The translations under genes were made by a program, and so were the position numbers. Below, piece by piece: positions 6,680 through 41,770 of a DNA stretch of 41,773 nt. How positions within the stretch are numbered: the stretch's first letter is position 1; the number at the start of each line of letters is the position of its first letter. The notes under the pieces are model-generated. The model was not told the origin of the DNA and made no database searches. It saw only the letters and a program-made list of their open reading frames with translations. Origin of the DNA: Candidatus Nomurabacteria bacterium. GTDB lineage: Bacteria > Patescibacteriota > Minisyncoccia > Phycocordibacterales > UBA9973. The stretch is taken from positions 1 to 41,773 of the forward strand of contig CALRHG010000003.1 of the NCBI GenBank assembly GCA_943359365.1, written 5' to 3'.

Positions 6680-8785
<2,106 letters not shown>

Positions 8786-8834
8786 TTACATTGGCTAGCG
8801 CAAAAACTCTCAAATATCCTTATTTTTGGCAACT

Positions 8835-8876
8835 AAAAAAGCCAGCGCAGTCCTTCCGGAGCAACGCTGGTCTTTT
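8835..8876 (-). terminator. Rho-independent terminator upstream of gyrB
   Basis: Minus strand CCAGCG-TTGC-TCC GGAA GGA-CTG-CGCTGG followed by C-TTTTTT; a small hairpin CGAGCA/TGCTCG (8882-8900) precedes it. Confidence 0.75.
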
Positions 8877-8908: not shown

Positions 8909-9013
8909 TTAGAGCCCGTCTCGAGCATCCGTAAATGCGGAACTCTGGGAATGAGCTTTGTTGAACTTAGCGATGCGCTTGCGCGCATTTTGTAAGAACT
9001 TATTTGATTTCAT
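8909..9013 (-). CDS. Possible 34-aa basic small protein MKSNKFLQNARKRIAKFNKAHSQSSAFTDARDGL
   Basis: ATG overlaps the end of the upstream ORF, ends TAA TGA just before the terminator; below the ORF-track cutoff. Confidence 0.35.
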   Translation of the reverse strand: MKSNKFLQNARKRIAKFNKAHSQSSAFTDARDGL

Positions 9014-9323
9014 GATTTTCTTGCTCGATTTCCGCTGGCATCGACTCCTCTAGGCACTTCATAACACCCACATAAGCTTCATGGGTAATAAGGCATTGCC
9101 TAAATGCTTCCTCTAAAGCTTCGTTGACATTCGTCATGTTCTGCCCATCGAAGTCTTCTGACCCTTTGAATCTGACCTCTTTCTGATCCGCTAAAGAAAC
9201 ATGGACTCGGCCACTAGAGTACGAAATTTGAATCGTGGCTATGTGAAGTTCCTTTTTTGTAAGCAGCTCAATAATTTCCGGTTTTAACACACATTCCTCC
9301 ATTATTAGATTTTCAACGACCAT
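9000..9323 (-). CDS. Hypothetical acidic protein (107 aa)
   Basis: ORF track 9000-9329; SD-like GAGGTG 5 nt before ATG at 9323; flanked by a structured leader and a terminator. No family recognised. Confidence 0.65.
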   Translation of the reverse strand: MVVENLIMEECVLKPEIIELLTKKELHIATIQISYSSGRVHVSLADQKEVRFKGSEDFDGQNMTNVNEALEEAFRQCLITHEAYVGVMKCLEESMPAEIEQENHEIK

Positions 9324-9407
9324 ATCCACACCTCGAACAATTCGAGGCTGGTGGATATGTTTCTAGTGTTTCTTGGAGACTACAAACGCATTCAGCAACC
9401 TCAAATT
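9321..9407 (-). promoter_or_regulatory. Translational switch: RBS-sequestering hairpin (9321-9359) and competing anti-sequestrator (9384-9407 with 9339-9362)
   Basis: CATATCCAC/GTGGATATG plus CCTCGAA/TTCGAGG stem covers SD and AUG; the upstream 24-mer can pair with the 5' arm at 21 of 24 positions including G-U. Confidence 0.75.
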
Positions 9408-9464
9408 ATTTTGGGTAAGGAGGAGGCCAAGGAGGTTATTAAATTTTAAGTTTATATTTTTCAT
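9363..9464 (-). CDS. Leu-rich leader peptide 2, MKNINLKFNNLLGLLLTQNNLRLLNAFVVSKKH
   Basis: Manual translation: 9 of 33 residues Leu, core CTC CTT GGC CTC CTC CTT; stops next to the RBS hairpin. Confidence 0.6.
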   Translation of the reverse strand: MKNINLKFNNLLGLLLTQNNLRLLNAFVVSKKH

Positions 9465-9477
9465 GTTGTTTTTAAGT

Positions 9478-9516
9478 AAAAAGAAGAAAACCAGCCCTTG
9501 GAAGGCTGGTTTTCTT
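9478..9516 (-). terminator. Attenuator-type intrinsic terminator
   Basis: 13-bp perfect stem AAGAAAACCAGCC/GGCTGGTTTTCTT followed by CTTTTT; 5' arm also complementary to 9541-9562. Confidence 0.85.
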
Positions 9517-9564
9517 TGTAAGTGTTTGTTTTAAGTGTTTTTACAGCGAAATATCAGCCTTCAA

Positions 9565-9621
9565 TTATTTGAGGCTGAGGAGGAGGGCTCCAGTATTAAT
9601 TTGCTGTGTTTTTTGCTTCAC
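9565..9621 (-). CDS. Leu-rich leader peptide 1, MKQKTQQINTGALLLSLK (GTG start, apparently leaderless)
   Basis: CTC CTC CTC AGC CTC AAA TAA overlaps segment 1 of a 1:2/2:3/3:4 structure; GTG is 6 nt after the -10. Confidence 0.62.
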   Translation of the reverse strand: MKQKTQQINTGALLLSLK

Positions 9622-9627
9622 GATTAG

Positions 9628-9672
9628 ATAATAGCATTTACCGAAAAATTGTAAATACATAAATGTGGAAAA
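9628..9672 (-). promoter_or_regulatory. Sigma70-type promoter with upstream DnaA-box-like site
   Basis: TTTACA (9655-9650), 16 bp spacer ending TGC, TATTAT (9633-9628); TTTTCCACA at 9672-9664. Confidence 0.6.
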
Positions 9673-9738
9673 CCATTCCTATCTAATTTTCTAGCATATG
9701 CGGAAATCTTAGATAAGCATTATTTATAGAAATAAAAT

Positions 9739-11520
9739 CTACCTCACCTGCCAACTTTTGGCTTTAATCTTTTCCGCAATTTTTTCCATAATTTTATTTA
9801 TTTCTTCGTCGGTCAGAGTTCTTTCGTACGACTGAAAAACTAATCTGAAAGCATAAGAAACTTTTCCGTCTTTCTTGAACTCATCAAAAAGCTCCGGACC
9901 TTTTATCACCATGTCACCCATGTTTTCTTTAATTATTTTTAGCACTTCAGTGCTTTTTACATTTTCTGGGACAAACACGGCAATATCTCGCGCGATGAAT
10001 GGGAAGAGGGACCACATCTTGAATTTAGCTTCTAGGTTCGAGCTTCTAGGTTCTAAGGGAAAATCTTTTGGCATATCCTTACAAAATTCTTCCAATTTTA
10101 TTTCTTTTATTTCTTTTTTATCTCCATAAGCAACATGCATTTCTTCCCCGCCTTTTTTAAATATAGTCCCAATCTCAAAAACTTTCACCTTGTCGATTCC
10201 TAAAAACGGAGCATTAAGTTGGTTTAATTTTATGCTTTCTTTTAGCCCGTCAGCCAGATTTGTTCTCAGAAATTTCTTATCCGAGGCGCTATTTTGCACT
10301 TCTACTTCACCCTTGTTAGCAAAAGCGTAGGTCATCACCTCCGAGTATCCTTCAGAAAGCAATTTATTTCTCGCCCAAGTTATTTTCGCGTAAGTCTCAT
10401 TTACCTTCGGCTTGAAATTTATTTTAGGAATATTTCCCTTCACTTTGTCATACCCGAGGATCCTGACCACTTCTTCCGCCATATCTTGTTCGGTAGCCAA
10501 ATCTAGGCGCATCGGCGGGACAATAATATCGAAAACTCCTTTTTTTAATACGTATTTAAATAAGTATCTTTTTAAAATATCTTCTATCTCTTTGTCGGAG
10601 ACTTTTAGTCCTAAAATATTTGAAATTCTATCCGTGGAAAAATAAAACTTACTCTCCTTTTGTTTATCTGGATATACATCTACGATATCTTCAAACTGAG
10701 CCTCGGGACACATTTCTAAAATGAGCGCAGAGAGTTCGCGCATTGCATACGGAATTAATTCCGGAGATAAATCATTCTCAAATCTTTTTCGTCCTTCGGT
10801 AAACATATTGAGGGTCTGCCCCATTTTCCTGACGGATACTGGATTAAAATTATCAATCTGTAAAATTATGTTCTTTGTATTATTATCCAATTCAGCCAAG
10901 GTTCCTCCCTTTACGCCGGTACCTATCGCATTCCCTTCCGCATCGTAAATAGCGACCATGCCTTTTTGCAACTCTTTTTGAGCTCCGCCCAGAAAAGAAA
11001 TTTTCTCGCCATCTGAAGTGTTTATATCAAGCTTGAGTCCTTTGACTTTGTCCATGTCAAAAACATGGCTTGGCTGGCCGCAATCAAACATAACTATATT
11101 GGTAGCATCCACGATGTTATTTATGCTCCTTTGTCCGATTGATTCTAAATGTTGAACTACCCAGTCCGGAGACGGACCAACTTTTATATTCCGAACAATC
11201 CTGGCAGCATCTCTGCGGCATTTCTCCGTGTTAATTTCAACTTTTAATTTTGTCGGCCCTGATTCCGAAATTTTGTATTTCGGAGTAGGATCTACATATT
11301 TTATATTGAGCAACGAAGAAATTTCGCGAGCCATGCCTTGATGGCTGAGCAGATCATGCGCGCGGTTCGGCAATATTTTTACGTCAAGAATAAAATCGCC
11401 GTCCGGCAATTTTTCAACGGTCTCCACTTCCGCCAAGTGATATGTCAAAATATCAGCTATCTCTTCCGCCTTTGGCGCATCGGGCACATACCATTTAAGC
11501 CAATTGTAAGAAATTTTCAT
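9739..11520 (-). CDS. pheT: Phenylalanyl-tRNA synthetase beta subunit, short form (593 aa)
   Basis: MKISYNWL, PNRAHDLLSH, INNIVDATN, RLDL...DMAEEVVRILGY, C-terminal FDX-ACB (RDIAV...ERTLTDEEIN). Confidence 0.93.
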   Translation of the reverse strand: MKISYNWLKWYVPDAPKAEEIADILTYHLAEVETVEKLPDGDFILDVKILPNRAHDLLSHQGMAREISSLLNIKYVDPTPKYKISESGPTKLKVEINTEKCRRDAARIVRNIKVGPSPDWVVQHLESIGQRSINNIVDATNIVMFDCGQPSHVFDMDKVKGLKLDINTSDGEKISFLGGAQKELQKGMVAIYDAEGNAIGTGVKGGTLAELDNNTKNIILQIDNFNPVSVRKMGQTLNMFTEGRKRFENDLSPELIPYAMRELSALILEMCPEAQFEDIVDVYPDKQKESKFYFSTDRISNILGLKVSDKEIEDILKRYLFKYVLKKGVFDIIVPPMRLDLATEQDMAEEVVRILGYDKVKGNIPKINFKPKVNETYAKITWARNKLLSEGYSEVMTYAFANKGEVEVQNSASDKKFLRTNLADGLKESIKLNQLNAPFLGIDKVKVFEIGTIFKKGGEEMHVAYGDKKEIKEIKLEEFCKDMPKDFPLEPRSSNLEAKFKMWSLFPFIARDIAVFVPENVKSTEVLKIIKENMGDMVIKGPELFDEFKKDGKVSYAFRLVFQSYERTLTDEEINKIMEKIAEKIKAKSWQVR

Positions 11521-11528
11521 ACAGAATT

Positions 11529-12251
11529 TTAATTTGAAACCTGGTTAAGCCGCAAATCGCCCTGATAAAAAAGCCGGACGTCGGGAATGCCCCACTTGAC
11601 CATAGCAATACGATCCAGTCCGCCGCCGAAACAAAAACCTTGCACTTTTACGGGGTCTAAACCCATACCGCGAATAACTTCCGGATTAGTCATTCCCCCG
11701 CCCATCATCTCCAGCCACTTACCTTTGAATTTAGCGAATACTTCTATTGATGGCTCGGTAAAAGGAAAAAAGCTCGGGCGAAACTCGATTTCTATGTCGT
11801 CTCCGAGCATTTTTTTATAGAAATTAGTAAGTATGCCTTTCATGTTGGCGAGGTTTACTCCGTCCTCTATCGTACCCAGCATAGAACCGTCTATCTGAAA
11901 AAATTGCATTTCATGGGTAGCGTCAGTCGCTTCGTTGCGGAAAACTTTACCGACAGAAATAAAAGCCGAAGGCATTCTGCCCGCCTTGGCTGCTTGTTCT
12001 GTCGCCCAAGCTGTCACGCCGGTTGTGTGTGTTCTTAAAACTTTCCCCCGCTCCTCCTTAATCCAAAAAGTGTCTTGCATGTCTCTGGCTGGGTGATCTT
12101 TCGGCATATTTAATATGTCGAAGTTGTACCATTCGGACTCCAGCTCCGGTCCGAGCGCAATTTCAAAACCCATATCGGCAAAAGCTTTATAAGCCTCGTT
12201 TGCCAAGATAGAAAGCGGATGTTCGGTAGCTTGTTTTTTCTCTTTTTCCAT
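11529..12251 (-). CDS. pheS: Phenylalanyl-tRNA synthetase alpha subunit, catalytic core only (240 aa)
   Basis: HPARDMQDTF, LRTHTT, FRNEATDATH, FRPSFFPFTEPS, GLDRIAM. Confidence 0.95.
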   Translation of the reverse strand: MEKEKKQATEHPLSILANEAYKAFADMGFEIALGPELESEWYNFDILNMPKDHPARDMQDTFWIKEERGKVLRTHTTGVTAWATEQAAKAGRMPSAFISVGKVFRNEATDATHEMQFFQIDGSMLGTIEDGVNLANMKGILTNFYKKMLGDDIEIEFRPSFFPFTEPSIEVFAKFKGKWLEMMGGGMTNPEVIRGMGLDPVKVQGFCFGGGLDRIAMVKWGIPDVRLFYQGDLRLNQVSN

Positions 12252-16050: not shown

Positions 16051-16817
16051 TTTTCTATTCTACTCCATTTGCCAATTTTTGTCCTTTTGATAGAAAGCGC
16101 CAGAGCCGGAACCCCTATTTTTTCTCCGAGCGAGTCTGCTATCGCCCTCACATATGTCCCACTGCCGCATTTTATATGGAAATCCGCTACAAAAAATCCT
16201 CTGTTCAACCCTGAGTGTTGAACACTGAGATTCTTGCGCCAAATTTTTAGAATTTCTTTTTGGCGGAAATCTCCTTTGACTTTGGCGATTCTGCGCTCGA
16301 TATTTTCTAAAAGTTTTTTTCTGCTTATCTTTTCTATTCCAAAAAATTTTAAACTTTTCACATTTACTTCATGCTCTGGGTTTTTCACTTTCTTCCCCGC
16401 CCGAGCATAACTAAAAAGCGGCTTGCCGTCGACAGTTTTCGAAGAATACATAGGGTAGCTTTGCATAAATTTACCCGTAAAAAATTTCAGGTTCTTTTTT
16501 ATTTTTTGCTCCAGCTCTGACATTCCGACATTCTCAAGAATGTAGGAATGTTGTACTTTGCCTAAAATATCGTACGTGTCTGTGGAAAAACCGAACAGTA
16601 TGCTGAATTTGTATTCTTTGGAAAGTTTTAAATATTTTTCTTTTTCGTGAACCGCATCGCCAGCGAGCACCAACAAGAGCCCAGAGGCTAAGGGGTCAAG
16701 CCTACCCGCATATGTCATCTTCGCATCTTTATACTCTTTATTCTTTTTGCGAAAACTCTCCAGCGCCTCGAGCGGAGTCTCCCCTTCTTTTTTGTTTAGC
16801 AGTAAGATTTTTTTCAC
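16047..16817 (-). CDS. truB: tRNA pseudouridine synthase B-like
   Basis: YAGRLDPLASGLL, KEY, GFSTDTYD, PMYSS, CGSGTYVRAI. Likely start GTG at 16817 overlapping the upstream TAG. Confidence 0.88.
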   Translation of the reverse strand: MKKILLLNKKEGETPLEALESFRKKNKEYKDAKMTYAGRLDPLASGLLLVLAGDAVHEKEKYLKLSKEYKFSILFGFSTDTYDILGKVQHSYILENVGMSELEQKIKKNLKFFTGKFMQSYPMYSSKTVDGKPLFSYARAGKKVKNPEHEVNVKSLKFFGIEKISRKKLLENIERRIAKVKGDFRQKEILKIWRKNLSVQHSGLNRGFFVADFHIKCGSGTYVRAIADSLGEKIGVPALALSIKRTKIGKWSRIEK

Positions 16818-17283: not shown

Positions 17284-17371
17284 TGGCGGAGGGTAGGAGA
17301 TTCGAACTCCTGGTGAATTGCTCCACACACGCTTTCCAAGCGTGCGCACTAGACCGCTATGCGAACCCTCC
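17284..17371 (-). tRNA. tRNA-Ser(GGA)
   Basis: Acceptor GGAGGGT/ACCCTCC-G-CCA, anticodon arm CACGC-TTGGAAA-GCGTG, long variable arm, GTTCGAA T-loop. Confidence 0.95.
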
Positions 17372-41498: not shown

Positions 41499-41590
41499 TG
41501 GCGGAGCCGGGCGGATTCGAACCGCCGAGGGGTTTTGAAGCCCCTGCCTCTTTAGCAAAGAGGTACGTTAGACCGCTCTGACACGGCTCC
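41499..41590 (-). tRNA. tRNA-Ser(GCT)
   Basis: Acceptor GGAGCCG/CGGCTCC-G-CCA; anticodon arm CCTCT-TTGCTAA-AGAGG; long variable arm. Confidence 0.95.
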
Positions 41591-41680: not shown

Positions 41681-41770
41681 GGACAGATGGGTGAGTGGTT
41701 TAAACCAGCGGTTTACTAAACCGCCGTTCCCTTAAAAGAACCGTGGGTTCGAATCCCACTCTGTCCGCCA
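41681..41770 (+). tRNA. tRNA-Ser(ACT)
   Basis: Acceptor GGACAGA/TCTGTCC-G-CCA; anticodon arm GCGGT-TTACTAA-ACCGC; long variable arm; GTTCGAA T-loop. Confidence 0.9.

Follow-up and report, generated by a model that had tools for sequence, protein, structure and literature searches.

A candidate leucine-responsive transcription attenuator upstream of an orphan gene belongs to a reusable RNA cassette family of Nomurabacteria-like bacteria

Classical leader-peptide attenuators are described by the numbering of their alternative RNA helices as 1:2, 2:3 and 3:4. The theory of this type of control in amino-acid operons and a survey of pheL leaders have been published (PMC1183508 and PMC3082878). Here we describe the region from position 9655 to 9476 on the minus strand of a 41,773-nucleotide (nt) stretch of Candidatus Nomurabacteria DNA, referred to below as the window, which is contig C3 of a genome that totals 664 kb over 46 contigs and has a completeness of 90.6%. 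This region is very probably a ribosome-mediated transcription attenuator that senses the supply of leucyl-tRNA and works in a leucine-responsive manner. The window copy is one member of a reusable RNA cassette set before many genes in Nomurabacteria-like bacteria that belong to the Candidate Phyla Radiation (CPR). From copy to copy the codon run changes, which is predicted to set the amino acid that is sensed.

Like the trp, leu, phe, his, thr and ilv leaders of Proteobacteria, the cassette combines a short open reading frame (ORF), which has a cognate codon run in or just upstream of segment 1, with mutually exclusive 1:2, 2:3 and 3:4 helices, a 3:4 terminator and a stop codon that would let the ribosome cover segment 2. 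Unlike these leaders, it has no Shine-Dalgarno-led start, its ORF opening at the predicted +1; it shows no similarity, by sequence or by model, to the leader families of Rfam; and a single scaffold is used for many amino acids, with many copies preceding non-biosynthetic genes and the window copy preceding an orphan.

The trpE, leuA, ilvB and aroF leader peptides of Corynebacterium glutamicum are leaderless. As in the cassette, small leader peptides there precede amino-acid biosynthesis genes and attenuation has been proposed, with one of the cases aromatic, but these leaders are actinobacterial and, according to the available text of PMC3890552, not homologous to each other (PMC3890552; PMC11857589). 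In Deinococcus deserti, the available text of one report predicts 14 leaderless leader peptides before aminoacyl-tRNA synthetase and amino-acid biosynthesis genes, each being a short ORF that is opened by a 5' AUG or GUG and is rich in one residue, as in the cassette; in contrast, this species belongs to another phylum, its starts were mapped by RNA-seq while that of the cassette is predicted, and the same text describes no shared RNA scaffold (PMC4007540). Mycobacterial polycysteine ORFs (10.1101/834739) are likewise leaderless sensory ORFs in which stalling on the run remodels the downstream RNA, and several loci share one amino-acid signal; they work by unmasking a ribosome-binding site, whereas the unit described here ends in a canonical terminator. 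For CPR bacteria or Patescibacteria, no description of attenuators or leaderless leader peptides was found in the full-text literature, subscription journals not being covered. New in the present case are the CPR lineage, one homologous scaffold for many amino acids that is found by one model, the tandem arrangement of two units (A and B) and the use before orphan genes.

Anatomy of the window copy and proposed mechanism

On the minus strand, 409 nt separate pheT (9739-11520) from a small ORF (9000-9329), and the attenuator site lies in this gap. A preliminary description of this DNA had proposed a complete 1:2, 2:3, 3:4 attenuator here, with a leaderless leader peptide that has a leucine run. 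All of its sequence-level elements were found, and the family covariation and open frames reported below back the model; what it had not contained are the paralogous family, a second unit with a leucine run and the nature of the target, an orphan small ORF. The elements of the window copy (unit A) are as follows.

9650-9655, minus strand: -35 box TTTACA (promoter scan); in related copies, TTTACA or TTGCAT stands here
9628-9636, minus strand: extended -10 box TGcTATTAT, with the hexamer at 9633-9628 (promoter scan)
9565-9621, minus strand: predicted leader peptide ORF A, 18 codons in total from GTG, then TAA, VKQKTQQINTGALLLSLK (translation, family frame)
9571-9585, minus strand: putative regulatory codons CTC CTC CTC AGC CTC, Leu Leu Leu Ser Leu (sequence)
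9569-9578, minus strand: segment 1, 5' arm of helix 1:2, TCAGCCTCAA (fold -12.0 kcal/mol; pairs covary in the family)
9541-9562, minus strand: segment 2, GAAGGCTGATATTTCGCTGTAA, partner of segment 1 or segment 3 (most conserved stretch of the family)
9501-9521, minus strand: segment 3, TTACAAAGAAAACCAGCCTTC, 3' arm of the antiterminator, overlapping the 5' arm of the terminator (fold -16.9 kcal/mol)
9476-9516, minus strand: intrinsic terminator, stem-loop 9516-9484 and T run (terminator scan; fold -19.9 kcal/mol)

The promoter, TTTACA-16-TATTAT at 9655-9628, matches at 10 of 12 positions in the promoter scan and has a 16-nt spacer and a TG extension. As had been described, the GTG at 9621 is 6 nt past TATTAT, which ends at 9628, and the same distance separates the -10 hexamer from the RTG start codon in 29 of 39 family copies. 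No Shine-Dalgarno sequence was found upstream of GTG 9621. The -10 geometry, our one line of evidence for a leaderless transcript, would place +1 on the first nucleotide of the start codon; a leaderless start of the window leader is likely.

Leucine takes up 4 of 5 consecutive codons in the 18-codon ORF A, and its stop TAA (9567-9565) lies 2 nt short of segment 2. The pairings proposed earlier were recovered to the letter on the minus strand: TCAGCCT (9578-9572) in segment 1 is the exact reverse complement of AGGCTGA (9560-9554), and GAAGGCTG (9562-9555) that of CAGCCTTC (9508-9501), with TTTC/GAAA and TGTAA/TTACA lengthening helix 2:3 across small internal loops. Helix 1:2 takes in only the last regulatory codons. 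Segment 3 contains the 5' arm of the terminator, overlapping the 15-pair stem AAGAAAACCAGCCTTCCAAGGGCTGGTTTTCTT (9516-9484), which is followed by CTTTTTACTT.

The helix energies listed, a comparison that the preliminary description had also suggested, were obtained by folding 1:2, 2:3 and 3:4 separately. The minimum free energy of the region 9625-9470 as a whole was -43.5 kcal/mol compared to -22.7 ± 3.1 kcal/mol for 200 dinucleotide shuffles (z -6.7), none of which was as good. For the nascent transcript as far as the end of segment 3, energies of -21.5 kcal/mol for the 2:3 fold and -21.0 kcal/mol for the 1:2 fold make the two nearly isoenergetic, which is the appearance expected of a switch. 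Counting from the G of GTG as nt 1, the Leu codons occupy nt 37-51, segment 1 nt 44-50, the stop nt 55-57, the segment 2 core nt 60-67, segment 3 nt 101-121 and the terminator stem nt 106-138. The run thus lies in and beside segment 1 and the stop is near enough for segment 2 to be masked, and this spacing is of the classical attenuator design.

A ribosome shields about 12-15 nt downstream of its P-site codon. With such a footprint, a ribosome paused on the CUC run would cover segment 1 and leave segment 2 free, whereas one at the stop codon would cover segment 2. In the mechanism that we propose, transcription would start at or next to GTG 9621 and the leader ORF would be translated from the leaderless 5' end. 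A ribosome that reaches the TAA would place its footprint over segment 2, the 3:4 terminator would form and a leader RNA of ~140 nt would be released; with no ribosome loaded, helix 1:2 and then 3:4 would form, likewise giving termination. A ribosome stalled on the CUC run would instead allow helix 2:3 to form ahead of segment 4 synthesis, and RNA polymerase would read on, next meeting unit B (9464-9321) and then the orphan ORF of ~100 codons, which extends to 9000 and has its own terminator. Readthrough would accordingly depend on translation of the leader, as the arrangement of the elements suggests. A thermodynamic switch at equilibrium was rejected, since the terminator of 33 of the 39 copies withstood masking of segment 1; the choice between the folds must rather be kinetic, made during transcription.

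A cassette family with covarying folds and an open leader frame

A DNA search of the window's own genome (G000) found two paralogs, on contigs C1 and C7. The three copies share the -10 box, the 6-nt distance, the GTGAA... start, segment 1 and the terminator, as well as the nearly invariant GAAGGCTGATATTTGCGCTGTAAAA and ACTTACAA. At E up to 0.1, covariance model R1, built from these three copies, had a match in 38 of 101 related genomes. For the genus alone the figure was 29 of 60 genomes (28 of 59 without the unpublished G060), with 1-7 copies per genome. The retrieved loci gave 47 R1 matches at E up to 0.001. The 40 copies at E up to 2e-6 were used for alignment A4, and model R3, rebuilt from A4, matched, with weaker scores, 11 of the 150 further genomes that were sampled over the order. 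Rfam at the gathering score detected two tRNAs only in the whole window. At E up to 10, the interval 9200-9800 gave sub-threshold noise with no T-box or other leader match, Phe_leader (RF01859) reaching 17 bits vs a gathering score of 55, and nothing resembling the cassette was found in Rfam 15. Being both detectable by a covariance model and absent from Rfam 15, the family could be annotated in hundreds of metagenome-assembled genomes.

Both folds covary across the family. The antiterminator structure was written from copy L008, and only its 5-bp TGTAA:TTACA helix had been part of the search model. On A4, 94.9% of antiterminator cells were paired, and pairing fell to 35-51% when the partner was slid by 1-3 columns. 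Two-sided changes were seen in 8 of 18 antiterminator pairs and 23 cells compared to 2.8 ± 1.1 pairs and 7.8 ± 1.8 cells in shuffles, a level that 0 of 500 shuffles reached, although the copies are related and these statistics overstate their independence and are not probabilities. The terminated fold (1:2 plus 3:4) had 89.9% of cells paired and two-sided changes in 17 of 26 pairs and 54 cells vs 7.1 and 14.4 in shuffles (0/500); these figures lean towards that fold, since A4 was fitted to the terminated structure. The 1:2 pairs (helices 1-3) covary across the family, and 7 of the 9 pairs of helix 5, the terminator, have compensatory changes. In copy L029, four positions of helix 2:3 are compensated and segment 1 is altered to match.

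The leader frame was analyzed in 39 anchored copies out of 46 matches examined; L021:858, with an ATG further upstream, and six weak matches (L036-L041) were skipped. The region between the RTG and segment 2 is the most variable part of the element, yet frame 0 from the 5' RTG had no stop before segment 2 in any of the 39 copies. Frame +1 carried a stop in all 39, mostly the TGA inside GTGAA, and frame +2 in 33. Between start and segment 2 lie 48 to 70 nt depending on the copy, indicating that the frame was kept through many indels. The conserved TTAGAAGGCTGA...GCTGTAA holds a stop in every frame, and hence each ORF ends at one of three stops even though the lengths vary: 24 copies use the TAA within TGTAA, 10 the TGA within GGCTGA, and 5, the window copy included, a stop just before segment 2. 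Start codons were GTG in 31 copies and ATG in 8, and the TGn extension of the -10 box is present in 22. L049 of genome G034, the nearest relative of the window copy, has another N-terminal half of the peptide, with indels (VNKYTKQIKSSRAFSMLLSLK), while frame, stop and helices are the same. The sequence conservation along the peptide expected of a small hydrophobic peptide or type I toxin was not found among the 39 copies, the middle being hypervariable. A stop position that is kept together with a C-terminus that is not fits a leader peptide and speaks against a functional small protein.

Several further motifs accompany the cassette. A conserved GTTCGTTGA(A/C)AA or GTTCTTTGAAAA lies 20-60 nt past the terminator in many copies (such as L008, L015, L044, L047 and L051) and at 9316-9304 (minus strand) in the window, and in several copies the interrupted U tract, TTCTCGTTT, could form pairs with a CGAGAA further downstream. 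Upstream of 16 of the 39 copies there is a TCCAC, and GTGGA, its complement, follows the terminator in 13 of the 39, frequently as GGGTGTGGA. In the window, TTTTCCACA is present at 9664-9672 (minus strand), about 10 nt upstream of the -35 box, and again at 16581-16589 (minus strand). With regard to a mobile element, the window contains TTTTCCACA just two times, as do 12 of 100 shuffles; the TTTTCCACA/TCCAC motif may be an operator or the end of a repeat, or may have arisen by chance.

A 335-amino-acid (aa) reverse transcriptase (Pfam RVT_1; L006:1650-2657, minus strand, on G000 contig C7) ends where the promoter of the C7 copy begins, and its motifs appear to resemble those of a reverse transcriptase of a diversity-generating retroelement. 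An origin of the paralogs from the template and variable repeats of such an element was rejected by eye: the changes from copy to copy lack adenine specificity, and indels are among them.

Codon runs, downstream genes and a second leucine unit

At the position of the leucine run, other copies carry runs of Phe, Ile/Val, Thr, Cys, Met or His. Downstream genes were identified from Pfam and NCBIfam, and the run appears often to agree with the gene that follows, as judged across the loci listed here.

VFFFS (L044): then chorismate mutase, prephenate dehydratase
FFFTGFFF (L034): then prephenate dehydratase
FNFFFFSFY, HFNFFLW and WSFFYFFFT (L037, L153 and L164): each then 3-deoxy-D-arabino-heptulosonate-7-phosphate (DAHP) synthase
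YFFFS (L017): then class IV aminotransferase
SFFFFSF (L031): then small ORF, class I/II aminotransferase
HHH (L159): then HisG
MKMSM (L161): then ORF without assignment, homocysteine S-methyltransferase
VVKKVTTKT in unit A and TTTKLT in unit B (L044, L141): then aspartate-semialdehyde dehydrogenase (asd)
YYY (L149): then a prephenate-dehydrogenase-like protein, its top NCBIfam matches all being to this enzyme (lowest E 2e-11) but scoring below the curated cut-offs

On contig C1 of the window's genome, the Phe-run copy precedes a small basic ORF and a non-discriminating aspartyl-tRNA synthetase (AspRS). Just upstream of this copy lie genes for a chorismate-binding enzyme and a class-I glutamine amidotransferase, of the anthranilate/aminodeoxychorismate synthase type (L002:30-1318, plus strand).

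A second unit with a leucine run, unit B, follows unit A in the window. Its ORF begins right past the T run of unit A, and the whole diverged unit spans 9464-9321 on the minus strand. Both units are placed before the small ORF, which would be the gene under their control in this arrangement.

9363-9464, minus strand: predicted leader ORF of unit B, ATG at 9464, MKNINLKFNNLLGLLLTQNNLRLLNAFVVSKKH and stop, with the Leu run LLGLLL at 9434-9417 (ORF list, model R2)
9321-9405, minus strand: predicted alternative helices of unit B, segment 2' (9405-9380) with 9368-9341, or hairpin 9359-9321 (folding)
9000-9302, minus strand: orphan small ORF, 96-109 aa depending on the start (ATG 9302, GTG 9290 or GTG 9329); the database call has 100 aa

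The unit B hairpin 9359-9321 (-24.3 kcal/mol, z -5.7) competes with the long pairing, in which a long hairpin spans 9409-9337. It encloses the Shine-Dalgarno-like GAGGTG and an ATG at 9323 that is in frame with the small ORF, which makes translational masking possible. By analogy, unit B may be closer to the mycobacterial mechanism than unit A is, its hairpin lying over GAGGTG and ATG and having no T run.

With model R2, the unit B type turned up in 10 of the 101 genomes of the genus, G000 and G060 included. The peptides have a conserved N-terminal ...KFN and C-terminal LRLLNAF, and the runs between them vary: LLGLLL (window and G034), TTTKLT, YYY, TCTCTTT, YYWHFF (twice), YYWHHY and YPWHLF. 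The leucine codons of unit B differ synonymously between the window and G034 (CTC CTT GGC vs CTG CTC GGT). At all four loci with both units, A and B agree on the amino acid, which is Leu in the window and G034, Thr in G046 and Thr/Cys in G038.

Proteins of 371-437 aa are encoded right behind leaders with aromatic (YYWHFF-like) or Thr/Cys (TCTCTTT) runs at L144:1669-2946, L145:211-1491 and L142:314-1495, and further proteins of this type occur at L146, L147, L148 and L151. Those of L142, L144 and L145 are homologous (31-68% identity), and those of L147 and L148 form a second pair. No match to any of these proteins was found in Pfam, NCBIfam or the PDB sequences; they may be transporters or enzymes, linked to amino acids, of a kind not yet described. 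Interpretation of the unit B peptides and these proteins as a ribosomally synthesized and post-translationally modified peptide system of the graspetide class was not supported, there being no ATP-grasp or other match in Pfam, NCBIfam or PDB sequences.

The small ORF itself had no Pfam or NCBIfam match, and the one protein that a word-based homolog search returned was that of the window itself. The best-scoring entries of the ESM Atlas (0.79-0.81) were without exception unnamed viral clusters and stayed below lead level. An exhaustive profile search found 7 matches among 1.84 billion representatives, all of them unnamed. The protein is 32% identical to the small ORF behind an ALLLSL leader at L018, and the small ORFs behind different copies are not one family, with few pairs or groups matching at E < 1e-3.

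The next gene on the minus strand past the small ORF is gyrB (6680-8758), followed by a NUDIX gene. Two features intervene before it.

8835-8872, minus strand: terminator-like hairpin and T run past the small ORF (-21.8 kcal/mol, then CTTTTTT)
8769-8797, minus strand: promoter-like site of gyrB, TAGCCA-17-TATAAT with TG, 10 nt before the gyrB ATG at 8758

We considered gyrB as the target of the window attenuator and rejected it. The intervening hairpin and the separate promoter-like site suggest that gyrB is probably not regulated from here, and an R1 match was present upstream in only 6 of 72 gyrB loci of related genomes. With the -10 box only 10 nt before the ATG, the predicted leader of the gyrB mRNA is no more than a few nucleotides long; mRNAs with so short a leader, or with none, may be frequent in this genome.

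CPR bacteria and Patescibacteria are mostly uncultured and little is known of their gene regulation. The cassette family would show that CPR bacteria monitor single amino acids by ribosome stalling, with leaderless translation put to this use, and that a single RNA scaffold can be re-aimed by a few codon changes. In effect, the codon run would label the downstream gene with an amino acid, giving testable functional hints for orphan proteins. A more far-reaching proposal, which we regard as tentative and rather doubtful, is that of a modular duplicating cassette re-aimed at a dozen amino acids and set before biosynthetic as well as uncharacterized genes, in which promoter, 5' start, segment 2, segment 3 and terminator are fixed parts and the codon run is swappable, and in which two serial leucine sensors in the window gate a ~100-aa starvation-response effector of a host-dependent cell. 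If true, amino-acid-linked roles could be assigned to uncharacterized CPR proteins, including those of 371-437 aa.

Weighing the evidence, and neighbouring features

Several observations weigh against a leucine-responsive attenuator, besides the relatedness of the aligned copies mentioned above. Nothing visible ties the orphan small ORF, the presumed target, to leucine, and the window's own genome, at its 90.6% completeness, yielded no match to Iso_dh (LeuB-type). The CUC codon is not rare, accounting for 19% of the Leu codons when 36 long window ORFs are counted, and pairing with the purine-rich segment 2 forces part of the Leu/Phe/Ser bias around AGC; with regard to the latter, the first two CUC codons sit outside helix 1:2, upstream of it. 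At equilibrium, the window terminator remained formed with segment 1 masked. In unit B, the hairpin has no T run, and no clear or consistent -10 box lies 6 nt before the ATG. Among the sister copies, Phe runs precede a non-discriminating AspRS at eight loci (L008, L015, L016, L019, L022, L025, L027 and L046), usually with a small basic ORF between leader and AspRS, and the L046 enzyme was assigned with 445 bits vs a cut-off of 353 for NF003483. Phe runs also precede phosphoribosyl pyrophosphate synthetase in L047 and L028, and the two tandem A units of L028 differ in their run, one being Phe and the other Ile. Behind the copy on contig C7 of the window's own genome lie a 39-aa ORF and MurB, behind an Ile-run copy an unassigned ORF and an EF-Tu-type GTPase (L163), and behind a Met-run copy an unassigned ORF and TsaD (L154).

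The lack of a leucine-related target would be accounted for if the window copy were a structurally intact relic whose leucine-related target had been lost from the reduced genome and which now terminates or leaks before an orphan ORF, serving no regulatory purpose. Besides Iso_dh, prephenate dehydratase also had no match in the own genome, both searches being positive in controls with 14 of 14 genomes, and the rarity of the downstream ORF in sequence databases and of R1 matches upstream of gyrB would fit such a loss. The parts are, however, all intact, including the frame and the finely balanced helices; tandem leucine units have been kept in both the window and G034 while the unit B codons changed synonymously; and the small ORF is conserved behind another leader with a leucine run, at L018. 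We therefore consider a relic unlikely. A self-contained unit from promoter to terminator could also be the gene of a ~140-nt terminated transcript that acts chiefly in trans, as a small RNA or as the mRNA of a small hydrophobic peptide. Its CCUCCUCCUC tract resembles an anti-Shine-Dalgarno sequence, and attenuator-derived RNAs and leader peptides of Sinorhizobium act in trans (PMC6614838; PMC7298713). This pyrimidine tract is not kept as a sequence, other copies being U-rich or mixed, and no peptide sequence is conserved, the C-termini differing with the frame in which the ORF ends (24, 10 and 5 copies). An antiterminator fold that covaries is needless for a simple small RNA or small-protein gene, and the runs match downstream genes; a mainly trans-acting product in place of a cis regulator is thus very unlikely.

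The leader could alternatively be bound by a protein, a tRNA or a small ligand, in the manner of TRAP, T-box or riboswitch systems, with an ORF that is incidental. Conservation of the 5' third of the RNA, GTGAAtAAAAAtAtACAaGCAAAT, at the nucleotide level is compatible with such binding. We judge it highly improbable, given that the RTG-led frame is open in 39 of 39 copies, that no Rfam family reached its gathering score and only noise was seen at E up to 10, and that the variable region differs by amino-acid run and has no conserved core resembling a ligand pocket.

Upstream of the attenuator, pheT carries the Pfam domains B3_4, B5 and FDX-ACB. Both pheT (593 aa) and pheS (11529-12251, minus strand, 240 aa) are short forms, and 83 nt separate the pheT stop from the start of the leucine attenuator.

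Elsewhere in the window, ARAGORN predicted three tRNA-Ser genes, at 41499-41590 (minus strand), 41681-41770 (plus strand) and 17284-17371 (minus strand). The one at 41681-41770 has the unusual anticodon ACT, and that at 41499-41590 was missed by Rfam at the gathering score.

A 38-nt intergenic repeat, with an inverted repeat TTATCTAA ... TTAGATA around TTTCCGCATATGCTAGAA, is present in four copies that are 87-95% identical. One lies in the window at 9680-9717 (minus strand), right past the pheT stop, and the others are at C4:8253-8290, C15:14902-14951 and C1:35252-35288 of genome G000.

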